Below, piece after piece: positions 1,976 through 29,711 of a stretch of DNA of 37,640 nucleotides. The stretch's first letter is position 1; each line of letters starts with the position of its first letter. A program made the position numbers and the translations under genes. Source of the DNA: a virus; the IMG/VR virus record IMGVR_UViG_3300021256_000065. One strand, written 5' to 3'. The notes below the pieces were generated by a model, which did not search any database, was not told the DNA's origin, and saw only the letters and a program-made list of their open reading frames with translations.

Positions 1976-1993
1976 TCCAGCCCCAATTTTTTT
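1964..1993 (+). terminator. rho-independent terminator
   Basis: GGGCTGGATTAATCCAGCCC hairpin followed by a T-run. Confidence 0.55.
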
Positions 1994-2026
1994 GGCCCGG
2001 GCGCCCATTTTTTTTACTAAACCCCT

Positions 2027-2055
2027 TGACAAATCAAAGAATATCAATTATAATT
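2027..2055 (+). promoter_or_regulatory. sigma-70 consensus promoter
   Basis: TTGACA at 2027-2032 and TATAAT at 2050-2055. Confidence 0.6.
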
Positions 2056-2082
2056 GATTTATCAAAAGAAAGGAGCAAAAAA

Positions 2083-2454
2083 ATGAAAACCGCAAAATTA
2101 TCTCTCTTAATATTATTTTTCTTTTTTGCTATTGTTGTTATTTCATCCCCTGCAACTGCTGCCAAAAACGATTTGAAAATCATTAAAACTCTTTGCAAAA
2201 ATAAACCATTTAAAGTGGTTTCCCACAAAGATTACAAGAAAATAGCTCACAGGAAAAATAAGCCTTACATAATAGTTATAAAAATCGTTTCCCGCTCAAA
2301 AGGAAATTATGGTTTTACAAAAGAGGGATATTACATTTCCTATAACAAAAGAGTCAAAGTAGGAAAAAAAGTTACTAGTTACCTTATTTATAATCCAAAA
2401 AACAATAGTCATGATGATGTGCTATGGGTTGTAGATAATGGAAAATATAAATAA
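2083..2454 (+). CDS. small secreted protein with N-terminal signal peptide
   Basis: ATG after RBS AAAGGAGC. Hydrophobic N-terminus LSLLILFFFAIVVISSPATAA. Confidence 0.55.
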   Translation: MKTAKLSLLILFFFFAIVVISSPATAAKNDLKIIKTLCKNKPFKVVSHKDYKKIAHRKNKPYIIVIKIVSRSKGNYGFTKEGYYISYNKRVKVGKKVTSYLIYNPKNNSHDDVLWVVDNGKYK

Positions 2455-2462
2455 AAAACATG

Positions 2463-2492
2463 TTGACTTTTTTCTTAATCAATGATATAATC
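2463..2492 (+). promoter_or_regulatory. sigma-70-like promoter
   Basis: TTGACT, a spacer and TATAAT. Confidence 0.5.
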
Positions 2493-2515
2493 TAATCAAG
2501 AAAGGAGAGATGAAC

Positions 2516-2851
2516 ATGACAAACAAAGATAAGCTGATTGAAAAAATCATGAGAGAGTGTGAACAGGAAGGCGAGCCTGTCACAAGAGAAGAAGCTGAAG
2601 AGATGGCAGAGATGGAAATCAAAGCTAATGGCATCAAGCGGTACGAACAGTCCGACAAACCGCGGAAGACCGCTAAAAAGGAGCGGAAGGTGGACACCAC
2701 AAAGAAACGCCTGCTGATGGATTGCAAGGTGCTTCTTGAAGGTCTTGGTGCTGAGGTTCTCAATGTGAAAACTGAGACCGAAGTCACTTTCAACTTTGAG
2801 GGTGAAGAGTATAGCCTGAAACTGGTCAAGCATCGCCCCAAGAAGGAATAA
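2516..2851 (+). CDS. hypothetical protein; paralog of 4997-5389
   Basis: Shared KPRK..K.ERK...Y.L.L.K.RP.K architecture. RBS AAAGGAGAG. Confidence 0.55.
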   Translation: MTNKDKLIEKIMRECEQEGEPVTREEAEEMAEMEIKANGIKRYEQSDKPRKTAKKERKVDTTKKRLLMDCKVLLEGLGAEVLNVKTETEVTFNFEGEEYSLKLVKHRPKKE

Positions 2852-2967: not shown

Positions 2968-3155
2968 TCTTCCAGCGGGGCGCGAGCCTTCGGTTCGCGC
3001 CGAAATTTCCATTGTACCACACCCCGCACTTTTTGTCAAGCAAAATCTGCAAAAAAACTACACAAAATTATATCCCAAAATTAGTGCAACATTCCGATGT
3101 TGACTTTCTAAAAAACTTATATTATAATATGTTTACAAGGTAAGGGAAGGGCAAC
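2968..3155. repeat. 190-bp direct repeat unit A, copy 1
   Basis: Direct repeat of about 85 percent identity with 4045-4232. Each copy holds a GC hairpin, a TTGACT-17-TATAAT promoter and a conserved transcript start, with no ORF. Confidence 0.7.
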
Positions 3156-3243
3156 ACAATCGAGTAGGATGGTCGGCAGAGCCTAGCGCCTTCTGATTAT
3201 TTGAATAGACAGATAGCCACTTCAAAAAAAATAAAAAAACTTG

Positions 3244-4854: not shown

Positions 4855-4892
4855 GTGCCGAATCGAGATTGAAATAAATCCGTAGATTGAGG
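4855..4892. repeat. 38-nt conserved element, copy 2
   Basis: See 265-302. Confidence 0.6.
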
Positions 4893-4936
4893 GTATTTTG
4901 GGGCGGGCCCGGGCCCCAAAAAATTTCAAAAAAGGG

Positions 4937-4965
4937 GTTGACAGATAAAAATAACTATGTTATAA
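4937..4965 (+). promoter_or_regulatory. sigma-70 consensus promoter
   Basis: TTGACA at 4937-4942 and TATAAT at 4960-4965. Confidence 0.6.
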
Positions 4966-4996
4966 TTTAACCATCAAGAGAAAGGAAGTACAAAAC

Positions 4997-5389
4997 ATGA
5001 CCTACAATTTGAATGGTAAGAACATCCGTATCCCCGATACTGAAATCACCAAAAGCATGAAACTGTTAAATATTTCTCAAGATGAAGCCGTTCAGATGTG
5101 GCTTGAAGATGAAGGCTATCTTGAAAATGAAGTGGTTGAGGAACTGACCGCAAAAGCCAAGGAAAACAAGGTCAACCATGAAGCAAAAGCCAACAAACCC
5201 CGCAAATCTGTTAAAAGAGAGCGGAAACCTGATGAAGAAAAGGAAAATCTTATCGAAATCCTCGCAAATTGTCTGAAAAATGCGGGATTTGACACAGAAA
5301 TCACCAATAAAAGCAAGATTATTCAGTTTAATGTGGGTGAAAACCACTACAAACTTGATTTAATCAAGCAAAGACCGCCAAAAAAGTGA
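4997..5389 (+). CDS. hypothetical protein; paralog of 2516-2851
   Basis: ORF with RBS AGAAAGGAAG. Confidence 0.55.
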   Translation: MTYNLNGKNIRIPDTEITKSMKLLNISQDEAVQMWLEDEGYLENEVVEELTAKAKENKVNHEAKANKPRKSVKRERKPDEEKENLIEILANCLKNAGFDTEITNKSKIIQFNVGENHYKLDLIKQRPPKK

Positions 5390-20202: not shown

Positions 20203-20294
20203 TTATCTGGTTTAAAGAATTTCTTTTTGATTTTTTTAAAAAAATATTATATAATATTTATATGATAAAGATAGAAAAAGAAAGGAAATTGCAT

Positions 20295-21209
20295 ATGACA
20301 GAGATTATGATTGATGCACTTGATCTTGATGAAGATATGGAATTTGATCAAGAGAATGAAACAATTATAGAACAGCCTGATGCGGTTGTTACAAGTCCTG
20401 TAAAAATGTATTTACGAGAAATCGGCAAATATAATCTTCTGTCAAGAGAAGAAGAAATAGAACTAGCGGAAGCCGCCCTTAAAGGCGATAAGGAAGCGAA
20501 AGAAGCCCTTATCAATCACAATTTACGTTTGGTGGTTTCTGTTGCTAAACGCTATATGGGGCGAGGACTTACTCTTCTTGACCTGATTCAGGAAGGAAAT
20601 GTAGGTTTAATTAAGGCAGTTGATAAGTATGATGTGTCTAAGGGTTTTAAATTCTCTACATATGCTACCTATTGGATTAAGCAGGCAATTTCTCGTGCAG
20701 TAATGGATCAGACTAGAAATATTCGTATTCCTGCCCATATCATTGAGATGATGAGTAATATTAAAAAGACTGAACGTGAATTTCAGCAGATTCATGGGCG
20801 TGAGCCTAAAGAAGCTGAAGTTGCGGCTGCTCTTGATATTGAAGTTAAAAAAGTTAAGGAAGTATATGCCTGGATGAAGGATACTACTTCTCTTGATATT
20901 ATAGTCGGCGATGATGAAGATATTACGGTTGGCTCTTTTATTGAAGATGAGTCTGCAGTTCCTGCTTTTGCGGCAATCGAAGAAAATGATCGCACTATCG
21001 CGATTAAAAATATCCTTGATACTTTGAATGATCGTGAAAAAATGGTTATTGTACGGCGGTTTGGTATTGGTCTTGATAGAGCCGAAACTCTTGATGAGAT
21101 TGGTAAGGAACTTGGACTTAGCAGAGAGCGCATTCGTCAGATTGAAGCAGCTGCGCTTAGAAAGTTGCGGAATCCTCGTCGTGCTAATCTGCTTAAAGAA
21201 TTTTTCTAA
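20295..21209 (+). CDS. RNA polymerase sigma-70 family factor (RpoD-like regions 1.2 to 4)
   Basis: YLREIG (1.2). [18 protein letters not shown] and [12 protein letters not shown] (region 2). A region-4 [30 protein letters not shown]. Confidence 0.85.
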
Positions 21210-23179: not shown

Positions 23180-23253
23180 GCGGCAATAGTGGAGTGGTTT
23201 AACACAGCGGTCTCTAAAACCGCGGATCCTGGGTTCGAATCCCAGTTGCCGTA
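23180..23253 (+). tRNA. amber suppressor tRNA (anticodon CTA, reads UAG)
   Basis: Canonical 74-nt cloverleaf. Acceptor GCGGCAA/TTGCCGT with G1-U72. D-loop AGTGGTTTA. Anticodon stem GCGGT/ACCGC with 7-nt loop CTCTAAA, anticodon at 23214-23216. T-arm CTGGG-TTCGAAT-CCCAG. Discriminator A. Confidence 0.85.
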
Positions 23254-23740: not shown

Positions 23741-23762
23741 TAAAATCACTTACAGCAAAAAT

Positions 23763-23835
23763 TGTTCAGTAGTCAAAAGGTTAAGACATTAATTTTTAAG
23801 ATTAAGTAATGCTGGTTCGATTCCAGCCTGAGTTG
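23763..23835 (+). tRNA. tRNA-like gene with anticodon TTA (ochre-suppressor-like); functionality doubtful
   Basis: Canonical T-arm GCTGG-TTCGATT-CCAGC. Anticodon stem TTAAT/ATTAA with loop TTTTAAG. Acceptor has a 1-72 U-U mismatch. TAA clearly terminates genes in this window. Confidence 0.35.
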
Positions 23836-23849
23836 AGTGATTTGTTTTT

Positions 23850-24402: not shown

Positions 24403-24942
24403 ATGCAGGATATAAGATTAAAAATTTCCCCGCCTTGGGTAACTTATATTAATAAAATCTAGGCTCTTTTTGATGGAGATTCGCAGATTGATTGTAGTGT
24501 AAATTATAGTAGCAAAAAACCAGAAGTTGTACTTACTTGTAATAATGGTGATAAGGTTAATGCCTTAATGCAAATTCTTCCTAGGGAGGTTCCATTTGGA
24601 AATGTAACTCTTAATGTTGTAATTAATGGAGTTCCAAGCAATAGAGCATTTGTAAATAAAAAGGAGTTGTTTGAAGTTGTTTTTGAAAAGAATCCTGTAT
24701 TTGCATATGCGGTTGCCCCTGCTGAAGAAGGTGTCTTTTGGTTTGATATTGTTTATGTTGTCTTTAAAAATTGTGTTGTGCAATTCTTTAATGATAATTT
24801 AAATGATTGTCATGGTATAATTAGCACTCTTTATCAAAATATTGCGGAAGATATTTTAACAGGTGAAGCTGTTAATGGTGTATATTTTAATACAGATATT
24901 GAACAAGGTAAACTTGGTAAACCTCTTGGAGAGTGGCCATAA
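24403..24942 (+). CDS. hypothetical protein with 1 in-frame TAG, inside the tRNA array
   Basis: RBS AAAAGGAAT before the ATG. The frame is continuous with the ORF at 24568-24942 through the TAG at about 24460. Confidence 0.4.
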
Positions 24943-24961
24943 TTAAGATTTGTTTAATAAT

Positions 24962-25077
24962 AGTGCGGTGGCGGAACAGGTAAACGCATCGAAGGAGCGA
25001 GATGGTTAGGAACATATTATTGCGTGGAAAACCTCATGTAAAAACCATCATGTAAGGTGCAAATCCTTACCCGCACA
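24962..25077 (+). tRNA. tRNA-like structured RNA, paralog 1, with an insert of about 60 nt between the D and T arms
   Basis: Acceptor, D-arm GG-containing loop and T-arm TAAGG-TGCAAAT-CCTTA are shared with 25510-25615. Compensatory acceptor changes (C4-G69 versus U4-A69) support the fold. Confidence 0.45.
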
Positions 25078-25304
25078 ATTAAGGAGTGGTCTGGCAATAC
25101 CTCTATTATCATAGTGCAGATATGCATAAGTAATAACTTCAGATGAGTTATTACAAAAAGGCAGACCTTAGTATACAAAGACTCCAATATGAATATACGA
25201 AAACTCTGATTGGAAGTCAGTCACGGTTGATATATCGTGCAATGAAAACTGGTTTGCTAATGAGCATTAAAGTGCGGTCGAAGGCCAAGACTGCCGCCAG
25301 TCAT

Positions 25305-25394
25305 CGGAACGTAGCTCAATGGTAGAGCTTTGACGGTAAACAACAAGGGGTTCGTCACCTACTTGTGATGCACGTTCGAATCGTGCCGTTCCAA
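25305..25394 (+). tRNA. tRNA-like gene with C1xA72 mismatch and about 18 extra nt; anticodon unresolved
   Basis: Perfect D-arm GCTC-AATGGTA-GAGC and T-arm GCACG-TTCGAAT-CGTGC. Internal stem ACAAG/CTTGT with a 14-nt loop. Confidence 0.4.
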
Positions 25395-25509
25395 CGGCTG
25401 CCGAGAGCAAACGATCCGCTTGCAGGGAAGTTACCATAGAGTAGAGCTTCAGAAGAGTGCGGGATGAGCGGTTGGTGGAAACCTGAACCACCATTATAGA
25501 ATTTAGCAT

Positions 25510-25615
25510 TATGTGGTGGCGGAATAGGTAGACGCAGTGAGCGCCAAGCGGACATTGATTGTAGGGTAAGACCTGAGAGTCTTTGTCATGTAAGGTGCAA
25601 ATCCTTACCCACATA
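25510..25615 (+). tRNA. tRNA-like structured RNA, paralog 2
   Basis: See 24962-25077. Confidence 0.45.
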
Positions 25616-25674
25616 ATAAGCTGTATGGCTTACCATAGGGGGTCATAGCTCAGTTGGGAGAGCGCATCCCTTGC

Positions 25675-26152
25675 TTGAAAAACTTATATTTTTAAAATAT
25701 TATGGAAACTAAACAACTTGGAAATTTAACTTAGTTACAATGTATTACTCGTTTTTATGAATTAGGATATTCAGTATCAATACCTTATGGAGATAGTGAA
25801 AAATATGATATGATACTTGATATTAATGGAAAATTATATAAACTTCAAGCAAAACATGCTAAAGAATTTTATACAGAAGATAATCAATTATCATATATAA
25901 AGATAAAAACTTCTTGGCAATCTGGATATACTAAACAAAGTCAATATCATACAAATAAGTATTCTAAAAATGAAATTGATTTTTTTGTTACATACTTTCA
26001 AGGTAAAAATTATTTAATTCCAGTAGAAGAATGCTCAACTGAAAAAATATTAAGAATTTTACCTCCAAAAAATGGACAAATAAAAGGAATATCTTTTTTA
26101 GAAAACTATATTGATGAGGAGGTTATTAAAAAATTATAAGTATTATCAGGTA
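25675..26152 (+). mobile_element. intervening sequence in tRNA-Ala carrying a nuclease ORF (intron or homing-element candidate)
   Basis: Lies between the two tRNA halves and contains the ORF 25702/25810-26139. Confidence 0.5.
25702..26139 (+). CDS. PD-(D/E)XK / Hjc-like nuclease (homing-endonuclease candidate); the longer form needs TAG read-through
   Basis: ELGYSVSIPYGDSEKYDMILDINGKLYKLQAK fits an E...D...(D/E)xK nuclease core. The ATG at 25702 is in frame with the 25810 ORF through one TAG. Confidence 0.4.
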
Positions 26153-26330
26153 AAGGATGAGGTCGAGAGTTCGATTCTCTCTGGCTCCACCATTGCGGCA
26201 TCTGGAACTATGTATTTAGTTTTAACCACGCCAAAAGCAAGAAGGATTGGATTCGCGAATACAGATGAGACTTCTTGTAAAGACCCTCTGGCTTGATAGT
26301 TACTTCGAGAAGTATAGGAACTATCAATAG

Positions 26331-26406
26331 ACTCGATTAACTCAGCTGGGAGAGTGCGACTCTTACAAAGTCGAAGTCGTTGGTTCGAGTCCAACATCGA
26401 GTACCA
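26331..26406 (+). tRNA. tRNA-Val (anticodon TAC), CCA encoded
   Basis: ACTCGAT/ATCGAGT acceptor. Loop CTTACAA. T-arm GTTGG-TTCGAGT-CCAAC. Confidence 0.75.
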
Positions 26407-28199: not shown

Positions 28200-29711
28200 A
28201 TGAATACTTTTCTTAATCAGATGAAGAAAGATAATAATATTGATTATACAGAGAATGGCGGCGTGACCCATAAGTCTACGGAGTCTAAGGTTCTTGACAT
28301 GTTTGCGGTCGGCGGTGCATATAGAAACCGTTCTGATGAAGATGTTATTCTTCTCTTCAAAAACGCATTTGAAGAAGACCGCCTTCTGGCTATGAAATGC
28401 CTGTTTTATCTTCGCGATGTGCGCGGAGGACAGGGAGAAAGACGCTTCTTTAGAGTTGCCTTTCGCTGGCTTTGTGACGAATATCCTGAAGTTGCAAAGA
28501 AGAACCTTGACAATGTTAGTGAGTATGGTCGCTGGGATGATTTGATTTATGTTACGGAAGGTACTAGATGTCAAACCGCCGCATTCAATATCATCAGACA
28601 TCAGCTTGCTCTTGATACTCAGTGCAAAACGCCCTCCCTGCTTGCAAAGTGGCTTCCTTCTCAGAATGCTTCCAATGCAGAGACCAAGAGATTGGGACAT
28701 GTTTTGGCAAATTTCTTAGGGATGACCAGCCGCGAATATCGTAAGACCCTTTCTGTTCTTCGTGAACGCATTAATGTGCTTGAGCGTCTTATGAGCACTG
28801 GTAGATGGGATGAAATCGAATTTGATAAAATTCCTTCTAGAGCAGGTATTATTTATCGTAATGCCTTTGCTCGCCGCGATATTCTTGCCAAAAAGTATGA
28901 AGCTTTTGCCAAGAGTAAAGATACTAAGGTAAATGCAGATGCACTGTATCCGCACGATATTGCTCACAGAGCTTTTGAGATGCGTTATCATACTAACCTT
29001 GAAGATCCCACTCGTCTTATGCTTCAGAAGTATTGGGATAATCTCAAAGACTTCTATAACGGCAGAGAAGAGAATGGTATTGCAGTCGTTGATGTGTCTG
29101 GCTCCATGTCTGGAACTCCAATGGAAGCTGCAGTTTCTATGGGGGCTTACATCGCAGATAAAGCACATGGGCCTTTTGCGAATCACTTTATTACTTTTTC
29201 TTCCTCTCCTGAATTGGTAAGGTTTGAAGGAGTTGATATTGTTGATAAGTTTCGTCGTTGTGTTGGGGCAAACTGGGGTATGAATACCAACTTGCAGGCG
29301 GTATTTGATATGCTTCTGCATACTGCAATGAGAAAGAATGTAAAGGCTGAAGATATGCCGACTCGAATTTACATTTTTTCTGATATGGAGTTTGATCAGT
29401 GTGTGTCTTTTGATTGTACCCCTAAGCTTCACAGATGGGAAGGTTACCGTACTGTCAACTCTGTTGATGAGGTAAATTCCGATCTTGAGAAGATTAAAAA
29501 GGAATGGGCACGGTATGGATACAAAATGCCTCAGGTCATCTTTTGGAATCTCGATGCCCGTCAGAATCATATTCCAGCTATTGGAGAAGGGTTCAGTTAC
29601 GTGAGTGGTTTTTCGCCTTCTATGATTGACTGCATCTTGAGCGGCAAGGATGGCTGGGATTTGATGCTTGAAAAGCTCATGTCCAAACGTTATGCGGCAG
29701 TTGTTGCATAA
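28200..29711 (+). CDS. vWA-domain protein, DUF2828-like (503 aa)
   Basis: MIDAS-like VVDVSGSMSG. N-terminal TENGG...YLRDVRGGQGERRFFR, as in DUF2828. No internal TAG. GC content above that of its neighbours. Confidence 0.5.
   Translation: MNTFLNQMKKDNNIDYTENGGVTHKSTESKVLDMFAVGGAYRNRSDEDVILLFKNAFEEDRLLAMKCLFYLRDVRGGQGERRFFRVAFRWLCDEYPEVAKKNLDNVSEYGRWDDLIYVTEGTRCQTAAFNIIRHQLALDTQCKTPSLLAKWLPSQNASNAETKRLGHVLANFLGMTSREYRKTLSVLRERINVLERLMSTGRWDEIEFDKIPSRAGIIYRNAFARRDILAKKYEAFAKSKDTKVNADALYPHDIAHRAFEMRYHTNLEDPTRLMLQKYWDNLKDFYNGREENGIAVVDVSGSMSGTPMEAAVSMGAYIADKAHGPFANHFITFSSSPELVRFEGVDIVDKFRRCVGANWGMNTNLQAVFDMLLHTAMRKNVKAEDMPTRIYIFSDMEFDQCVSFDCTPKLHRWEGYRTVNSVDEVNSDLEKIKKEWARYGYKMPQVIFWNLDARQNHIPAIGEGFSYVSGFSPSMIDCILSGKDGWDLMLEKLMSKRYAAVVA

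Follow-up and report, generated by a model that had tools for sequence, protein, structure and literature searches.

What kind of RNA is encoded by the transfer RNA (tRNA)-like sequences at positions 24962-25615 of the IMG/VR virus record IMGVR_UViG_3300021256_000065? In this stretch of 37,640 nt, referred to below as the window, an earlier note made from the sequence alone had singled out two paralogous tRNA-like RNAs and a third tRNA-like gene between them, and had offered tRNAs with short introns, tRNA mimics and regulatory RNAs as possible readings. The interval holds a cluster of structured RNAs and not tRNAs interrupted by introns. Its two paralogs, designated tL1 and tL2, belong to a large unannotated family of phage RNAs, tL, which is a new form of tRNA-like non-coding RNA. 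The tL RNAs keep the whole core of a class II tRNA, with the anticodon arm reduced to a stub of ~10-14 nt and a hypervariable hairpin at the variable-arm position.

The paralogy is real. Two blocks of sequence are common to tL1 and tL2, the 5' one reading GGTGGCGGAAyAGGTArACGC and the 3' one CATGTAAGGTGCAAATCCTTACCC, and between these blocks the 61 nt of tL1 and the 51 nt of tL2 are unrelated in sequence. The acceptor stems differ by the compensatory changes that the earlier note had described, two pairs in number (GUGCGG/CCGCAC vs AUGUGG/CCACAU), and that of tL1 is limited to six pairs by an A x A mismatch at position 1. When a covariance model built on 100 family scaffolds (model R1) was run on the window, its matches at family level were exactly tL1 and tL2, the sole weak matches (~21 bits) being the window's true tRNA-Leu genes. 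D stem and T stem are separated by 64 nt in tL1 and by 54 nt in tL2, close to the 55-64 nt that had been given for the middle region. The description of this region as an insertion into the anticodon arm does not stand, that arm being missing and the hairpin lying at the variable-arm position. The terminal hairpin of tL2, AGAC-loop-GUCU, is also found in the tLs of three other loci (L062, L068 and L053).

Standard tools pass over both genes. Neither tL1 nor tL2 is called by ARAGORN, with or without introns, and none of the 4,227 families of Rfam 15 matches them, whether in the whole window at the gathering threshold or in 24800-26400 at E<=10; in that 1.6-kb search the tRNA family RF00005 (threshold 29 bits) is not reached by either RNA even at E<=10. 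A canonical anticodon arm, with a 5-bp stem, a 7-nt loop, U33 and a purine at position 37, is present in neither, nor is a leucine anticodon. These observations uphold the view that the two are not ordinary tRNAs. A blastn search of 50,697 phage records with 24900-25700 (E<=1e-5) gave no match.

The extent of the family emerged from exact-word scans of IMG/VR with the 24-nt 3' block and, separately, the 21-nt 5' block, all family counts being lower bounds. Since neither scan puts any demand on the opposite block, either set serves as a control for the other. At least 120 viral contigs contain the 3' block, and no fewer than 120 further contigs, mostly new, contain the 5' block. A 5' block with no more than four mismatches lies 26-165 nt upstream in 121 of the 137 3'-block matches listed, and most of the 112 listed 5'-block matches have a tL-type T arm, only ~5 being canonical tRNA-Leu(UAA) genes. 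Under a common definition there are at least 226 copies, at least 201 of them distinct, at no fewer than 206 phage or prophage sources. Among the matches listed, tL ranges in length from 76 to 361 nt (median 123), usually with one copy per locus and with up to four.

Of 185,579 species genomes just 16 contain the 3' block, and these are, with a single exception, Bacilli, Lachnospiraceae, Erysipelotrichaceae, Acutalibacteraceae and relatives, Clostridia included. Thus, tL is essentially phage and prophage cargo of Firmicutes. When a prophage tL was used in a relaxed search, the 3' block was also located in cultured phages (35 GenBank records), the carriers including the Leuconostoc phages Ln-9, LN34, phiLNTR2/3, CHA, CHB and P974, Enterococcus Schiekvirus (e.g. 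EFDG1), Listeria phages, Weissella phage PWc and Lactiplantibacillus phages. Nothing is annotated at the tL sites of these records, and in the 28-kb Leuconostoc phages no tRNA is annotated in the end region that flanks tL. The literature, as far as its accessible full text goes and with conserved sequence strings among the queries, yielded no description of a tL RNA; an unnamed entry in the catalogue of a survey of 10,006 csRNAs (PMC10690425) could overlap.

Covariation was assessed on 100 distinct scaffolds in which the 5' and 3' parts were joined. Pairing in the proposed helices extends to 97.3% of cells, a value attained by none of 500 shuffles (78.0%); cells changed on both sides number 300 vs 74 in shuffles, and the covariation score is 0.533 vs 0.144. 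Controls with slid partners are 34-52% paired. According to the earlier note, a lack of covariation in these stems among homologs would refute the claim. All three helices of the L-shaped core, that is, the acceptor stem, the D arm with G18G19 and the T arm, covary strongly, so the claim survives on this count, and with the canonical anticodon arm absent the suggestion of tRNA mimics is supported as well.

The same comparison defines the anatomy of the core. The acceptor-type helix has 7 bp, of which positions 2-7 pair in at least 92% of the listed copies and position 1 in 75%, the next outward position pairing in 60% and the background being ~37%. The D stem comprises 3 bp and covaries from C-G to U-A. 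The T stem, previously described as having five pairs, has six by family covariation, the extra pair being G-C, A-U, C-G, G.U or U.G and never unpaired, and the 7-bp and 6-bp helices together make a stack of 13 bp. With the sequence U-G-C-A-A-A-U, the T loop does contain the unusual G55 that had been noticed in the paralogs; U54, C56 and A58 are kept and, like U8, A14, G18 and G19, are conserved across the family, and the loop is able to form the U54-A58 and G19-C56 contacts. The pairs G.U and A.C number 39 vs 11, an excess that fits an RNA read from the tL strand.

In a class II tRNA, ~20 nt are needed between the D stem and the variable arm, to accommodate position 26, a 17-nt anticodon arm and positions 44-45, and the variable arm is followed by two bases and then by the T stem. 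In tL the distance from D stem to hairpin is mostly 10-14 nt. The three bases before the T stem are C, A and U in 79%, 95% and 99% of the listed copies, respectively, and in 73% of the 192 distinct middles it is precisely at this C that the hairpin of the minimum-free-energy fold ends, vs 47% when shuffled. A hairpin that closes two nucleotides before the T stem, preceded by so short a linker, is a hairpin at the variable-arm position, and what is left of the anticodon arm is a stub, able in many members to form a mini-hairpin of 3-5 bp. Among the 192 middles there is no conserved loop motif, anticodon loop or anticodon stem. Arm length runs from none to >150 nt; L173, with 8 nt in total between its D and T arms, does without an arm. 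About one-seventh of the arms in listed copies hold extra canonical T-arm-like hairpins (GGGUUCGAUUCCC). One arm occurs on different acceptors (L017 and L018), and one acceptor with different arms (L018 and Ln-9), a pattern which indicates that arms are exchanged as modules.

Among known RNAs, tL is close to class II tRNA-Leu. From G6 to C25 (GGUGGCGGAAUAGGUAGACGC) tL is nearly identical to real tRNA-Leu genes, including the window's tRNA-Leu(UAA), which differs from the tL D arm in two bases; the two G-C pairs that precede the D arm, like the D arm itself, are of the bacterial tRNA-Leu type. A Leu-type D arm and a long variable arm, by which a class II tRNA-Leu is recognised, are both present, and so are the 3-bp D stem, G18G19, U8, A14 and the succession of long variable-arm hairpin, R-U and T stem. 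Unlike tRNA-Leu, tL has the 10-14-nt stub, UGCAAAU in place of UUCRANY, a 6-bp T stem and the range of arm lengths given above, and it has no conserved A73 or G1 and no CCA.

Variants of this architecture were also encountered. At seven loci (L174, L214, L215, L226, L180, L181 and L205) the sequence diverges inside the T loop after GGUG (e.g. GGTGACTATACGAG...), resembling a further insertion, while in L060 (2760-2890), L229 and L236 a Leu-type D arm is combined with a T loop of the canonical form UUCGANU and with a middle that is long and non-canonical. The tRNA-like genes without an anticodon arm may form several scaffold classes.

Without an anticodon, tL would be unable to read codons, and the question becomes what else it might do. 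The best explanation, with about an even chance of being right, is that tL is a non-decoding, tRNA-Leu-derived RNA that acts in trans as a mimic or scaffold of the tRNA core. Large phages would transcribe it together with their tRNA array, whereas in small phages it would stand first in the late/packaging operon. Folding like a tRNA would give it stability and, probably, processing by RNase P and RNase Z. The conserved elbow and core would then engage or titrate a host factor that binds tRNA cores, and the exchangeable arm would carry a phage-specific (lineage-specific) module.

The neighbourhood of tL was surveyed by clustering 3,234 open reading frames (ORFs) within 4 kb of tLs at 206 loci. 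Terminases, an HNH endonuclease and a late activator make up the top clusters. At the copies away from tRNA and tmRNA genes these neighbours stand in a recurring same-strand order, with the DUF722 late activator upstream, the terminase large subunit downstream in 46 of 51 and the HNH endonuclease gene on either side; in the small phages tL lies between the late activator and the terminase genes. A specific protein partner was considered and rejected, the neighbour clusters showing synteny only. With no protein family found at more than 14 of the 206 loci, a partner, if there is one, is probably supplied by the host. The status of tL as an independent gene was likewise rejected, because terminator-like hairpins are only slightly enriched downstream of the copies.

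Several observations weigh against a trans-acting mimic of the tRNA core. No protein family accompanies tL in more than 14 of the 206 loci, the largest cluster being of that size, and the invariance of the D and T blocks is in part a result of the way in which loci were collected. G occupies position 1 in just 23% of copies, and the discriminator is not conserved, position 73 being A in 42-45%, barely above flanking composition; both are weak features for an RNase P substrate, and the "acceptor" could on this evidence be no more than a helix that closes off part of a longer transcript. A terminator-like hairpin follows 17% of copies vs 11% upstream. An antisense role was considered and rejected, as the variable arms of tL1 and tL2 lack complementarity to the window beyond chance: the longest window complements of the tL1, tL2 and tX middles are 9-11 nt, no better than in shuffles (tX, the third tRNA-like gene, is considered below).

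An elaboration of the mimic/scaffold reading takes tL to be a natural "tRNA scaffold" in Firmicutes phages. The 13-bp stack and G55 would keep it out of translation, and it would display a fast-evolving, exchangeable module or titrate a host tRNA-core binder, for instance a tRNA-directed immune effector. This is a speculative proposal with perhaps one chance in several of being correct. In the engineered "tRNA scaffold" a cargo hairpin is grafted into a tRNA body, which lets the chimera fold, undergo processing and withstand nucleases. There, by laboratory design, the cargo sits in the anticodon stem, whereas tL is natural and bears its arm at the variable-arm position.

Closest to the mimic/scaffold reading, and a specific version of it, is the possibility that tL is a decoy or inhibitor of a host factor recognising class II tRNA cores, such as a tRNA-directed anti-phage nuclease or nucleotidyltransferase, leucyl-tRNA synthetase (LeuRS) or the T-box leaders of Firmicutes. 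The restriction of the family to Firmicutes phages and prophages, as gauged by the 3' block in species genomes, would suit such a role, as would the exact retention of the Leu-type D arm and elbow, the fast evolution and exchangeability of the arms and the fact that small virulent dairy phages keep the tL gene. A decoy would, however, face competition from tRNAs in very great number; the anticodon loop, by which known anticodon nucleases recognise their targets, is missing from tL, and the variable discriminator counters pairing with T-box leaders or recognition by LeuRS. The decoy is accordingly put forward as an unlikely, though serious, candidate.

A little less probable is the idea that tL is processing punctuation only, a handle for RNase P and RNase Z that releases neighbouring RNAs such as transfer-messenger RNA (tmRNA), the 56-nt CUGG module described below, leaders or late mRNA from long transcripts and would then have done its work. 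Close packing speaks for it: the EFDG1 tmRNA ends 5 nt before tL, a structured element begins a few nucleotides after tL in the window and in L068, the CUGG module ends 1-4 nt before a tRNA-like gene, and the window's array is without internal terminators. Yet among the distinct copies listed only 35% have a tRNA or tmRNA within 2 kb, 17% lying in arrays, and the remaining 65% have neither in that range. In Ln-9, where tL lies on the minus strand within ~300 nt of the left genome end, it is equipped with a promoter-like and a terminator-like site of its own, and no other recognised RNA adjoins it. Moreover, an ordinary tRNA would suffice as a handle, which leaves G55, the 6-bp T stem and the maintained arms unexplained, and position 1 shows no preference for G.

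Bacterial LeuRS ignores the anticodon and relies on the core and A73, and so a leucine-accepting RNA used off the ribosome, or a LeuRS sink, has also to be weighed. A73 is indeed present in tL1, tL2 and the Ln-9 and EFDG1 copies, and the 13-bp stack and G55 could keep a charged tL away from EF-Tu. Family-wide, however, A73 is not conserved, its frequency being near the A content of the flanks; no CCA is encoded in the tL family, and the 1/72 position pairs in just the 75% noted above. Real tRNAs and a dedicated LeuRS substrate would show constraint at these places; with position 1, discriminator and CCA all unconstrained, a dedicated amino-acid acceptor is improbable, and aminoacylation appears unlikely as the conserved function of tL; this alternative is accorded little probability.

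The probability is lower again for a genuine tRNA-Leu that carries an intron or expansion and decodes after splicing. Location in a tRNA array, the Leu-type D arm and a neighbouring tRNA split by a large insert speak for it, and short introns were among the readings of the earlier note. Intron-aware ARAGORN does not rescue tL1 or tL2, the 192 distinct middles share no anticodon loop or stem and span 8 to >160 nt, there is no match to a group I or other ribozyme at E<=10 in 24800-26400, and G55 and the 6-bp T stem tell against it too; the short-intron reading finds no support. Equally improbable are tRNA pseudogenes in decay and, at the level of DNA, a site for recombination or packaging close to the terminase genes, for although standard tools do not call tLs and the small-phage tL lies between late activator and terminase genes, compensatory changes in three helices over 100 distinct copies, a strand-specific G.U excess and conservation across very different phages all count against them.

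Among known systems, the tRNA-like domain of tmRNA, found in bacteria and phages, shares with tL a tRNA top half (acceptor, T arm and D-loop contacts) without an anticodon arm, but tL, in which the D stem is complete, has no tag frame, pseudoknots, G3:U70 or CCA. None of the tmRNA models in Rfam matches tL, and no tmRNA is called in the window by ARAGORN, the sole Rfam tmRNA match there (18 bits, threshold 47) being the 3' half of a split tRNA (26119-26192). YrlA is a bacterial Y RNA-like tRNA mimic bound by Ro60/Rsr (PMC4201824). Like tL, it is a non-coding RNA of bacteria and phages in which one domain imitates the two arms, D and T, of a tRNA together with its tertiary core. The termini of YrlA lie in the conserved Ro-binding helix, whereas those of tL are in the acceptor helix and its distal arm is hypervariable. 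By analogy, tL would work most like the tmRNA tRNA-like domain or YrlA, yet it fails the defining features of both.

A gene for a DUF2828/phrog_850 protein stands 2.6 kb from the tL site in the window. The protein is possibly Ro/TROVE-like, and no sequence match to a solved structure was found for it. A Ro/Y-RNA system was considered and rejected, there being no Rfam match and no homolog of the protein in the flanks of other tL loci.

Further parallels are looser. Phage T4 encodes the species 1 and 2 RNAs (rnaC and rnaD), stable small RNAs within its tRNA cluster that are matured with the tRNAs; tL recalls them by description only, and T4 infects a proteobacterium. Like tL, tRNA-Sec and allo-tRNAs depart from the 7/5 acceptor/T arrangement and have long variable arms, tRNA-Sec with a 13-bp stack, but they decode and have canonical anticodon arms and T loops, whereas tL is 7/6 without an anticodon. 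ROOL and GOLLD are structured RNAs of Firmicutes phages and prophages and of rumen samples, often beside tRNA islands (PMC5737381, PMC12286853), and GOLLD sometimes encloses tRNAs (PMC12286853). They resemble tL in habitat, not in structure, tL being ~60-360 nt and built on a tRNA core, and neither ROOL (RF03087) nor GOLLD (RF01998) has a window match at the gathering threshold or at E<=10. ROOL co-occurs with tL in one of 25 loci scanned, L134, a metagenome-assembled genome of Acutalibacteraceae in which a ROOL RNA (282 bits) and a DUF3800-VIII RNA, at 1-548 and 3146-3210, lie upstream of tL.

If the mimic/scaffold reading is correct, tL would represent a widespread, highly conserved and unannotated class of phage RNA, present in at least several hundred viral contigs and also in cultured phages, some of them relevant to dairy fermentation or phage therapy; it is a class that standard tRNA finders and Rfam both miss. 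It would be a tRNA body held under strong selection after losing both ends of its decoding function. The 28-kb virulent phages, with their single tL copy, would make a tractable system for the odd stable RNAs of phage tRNA clusters. Should tL prove to be a natural scaffold or titrating agent, it would be a new class of RNA-based phage counter-measure or host-takeover factor. An exchangeable arm on a constant scaffold would also be of interest to RNA engineering.

Table 1. Features of the window and, in the last two rows, of Enterococcus phage EFDG1
Feature	Position	Strand	Description
tL1	24962-25078	+	tRNA-Leu-derived RNA without anticodon arm; R1 model 39.5 bits, E 1.5e-8
tL1 acceptor	24962-24968 / 25071-25077	+	A1 x A72 mismatch; followed by U8 G9; A at position 73
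tL1 D arm	24971-24987	+	
tL1 variable middle	24988-25049	+	linker AUCGAAGGAGCGA, long hairpin closed by GAUGGUU/AACCAUC, then conserved junction A-U (fold)
tL1 T arm	25052-25070	+	6-bp stem, loop UGCAAAU
tL2	25510-25616	+	second family member; R1 model 54.4 bits, E 8.9e-13
tL2 acceptor	25510-25516 / 25609-25615	+	7 bp; A at position 73
tL2 D arm	25519-25535	+	
tL2 middle	25536-25587	+	
tL2 T arm	25590-25608	+	
Element A	25079-25247	+	structured spacer RNA between tL1 and CUGG module
CUGG module	25248-25303	+	56-nt covarying motif; outer 5-bp helix (CUGG/CCAG), inner 6-bp hairpin, loop GAAGGCCAAG with palindrome GGCC
tX	25305-25394	+	tRNA-like gene of class I type, aberrant; D and T arms canonical; at anticodon-stem position a 5-bp stem UGACG/CGUCA around 17 nt, not a 7-nt loop
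Element B	25395-25509	+	spacer between tX and tL2
Split tRNA gene	25639-26192	+	G3:U70, encoded CCA; split in anticodon loop by ~477-nt insert
Endonuclease ORF in insert	25703-26139	+	PD-(D/E)XK homing endonuclease; PF11645 PDDEXK_5, E 3.7e-23, residues 1-136
Suppressor-type tRNA, anticodon CUA	23180-23253	+	ARAGORN
Suppressor-type tRNA, anticodon UUA	23762-23836	+	ARAGORN
Sigma-70 family factor	20262-21209		full-length, regions 1.2, 2, 3 and 4; just upstream of tRNA array
503-aa protein	28200-29711		DUF2828 + DUF7788; phrog_850 "RNA-binding protein", E 4e-121
EFDG1 (L249, KP339049) tmRNA	1976-2323		tag AKNEELLAVA*; unannotated
EFDG1 (L249, KP339049) tL	2329-2530		136-nt arm; starts 5 nt after tmRNA; unannotated

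The space between tL1 and tL2 is taken up by four further elements (Table 1). The segment 25078-25304, which spans element A and the CUGG module, folds at -61.8 kcal/mol vs -47.4 +/- 4.3 when shuffled (z = -3.4), and L068 has a 91% identical copy of element A over 255 nt, again directly behind a tL. The CUGG module recurs at eight loci (the window, L019, L046, L053, L060, L062, L068 and L091), where 88 of 88 cells are paired and six pairs show compensatory changes, the slid controls reaching 7-56%; at every one of them an aberrant tRNA-like gene or a tL follows 1-4 nt after its end, and it has no Rfam match. Element B is kept only in L019, at 83% over 294 nt together with tX, and its fold is no better than shuffles (z = 0.26). 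Elements A and B, like the tLs, are blank in Rfam over the same ranges and thresholds.

Separate from the tL family is tX, the third tRNA-like gene of the interval. Its D and T arms and extra nucleotides were correctly recognised at the outset: the Rfam tRNA model scores it at 42.1 bits, with 36 nt where 17 are expected. ARAGORN returns tRNA-??? and, with introns allowed, a forced Pro(GGG). As this only intron solution has a non-canonical loop (G32 and U37), tX does not hold up as an intron-bearing tRNA, and no 10-nt deletion in its anticodon region restores a canonical loop. The C1 x A72 mismatch, which had been taken as a hallmark of initiator tRNA, is present but not conserved, the L019 homolog pairing there within an 8-bp helix; the initiator assignment falls in any case with the lack of a CAU anticodon and of a G-C run in the anticodon stem. 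In the tX homologs that lie behind the CUGG module in L019, L062 and L091 the anticodon regions are also aberrant.

The surrounding plus-strand tRNA array comprises 17 genes by ARAGORN and 16 tRNAs by Rfam. The window is AT-rich (35% G+C), and 24900-25650, at 37-51% G+C, resembles the adjacent tRNA genes; terminator-like sites were found neither in this segment nor elsewhere inside the array. Under the standard code ORFs in the window are fragmented, stop-to-stop frames of at least 150 codons covering 16.5 kb, or 27 kb with readthrough of TAG. The window probably uses stop-codon recoding, although the frames lengthen with readthrough of TGA or TAA too.

Downstream of tL2, the array contains the split tRNA gene, which ARAGORN -i reads as tRNA(UUA) with a 478-nt intron, Ala(UGC) being equally possible by eye, depending on where the junctions are placed. 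Its endonuclease ORF has an in-frame TAG at codon 11 and leaves only ~40 nt of insert sequence outside it, and a search of 24800-26400 at E<=10 gave no sign of a group I core. This gene does not rescue the intron reading for tL1 and tL2. Homologs of the endonuclease with 37-41% identity occur in L070 (reverse, ~4858-5277), inside a tRNA-Asp-like gene with a 657-nt insert, and in L106 (1396-1863), directly behind a tRNA 5' half. Together with the case in the window, these indicate that ribozyme-less endonuclease inserts in tRNA anticodon loops recur in these phages.

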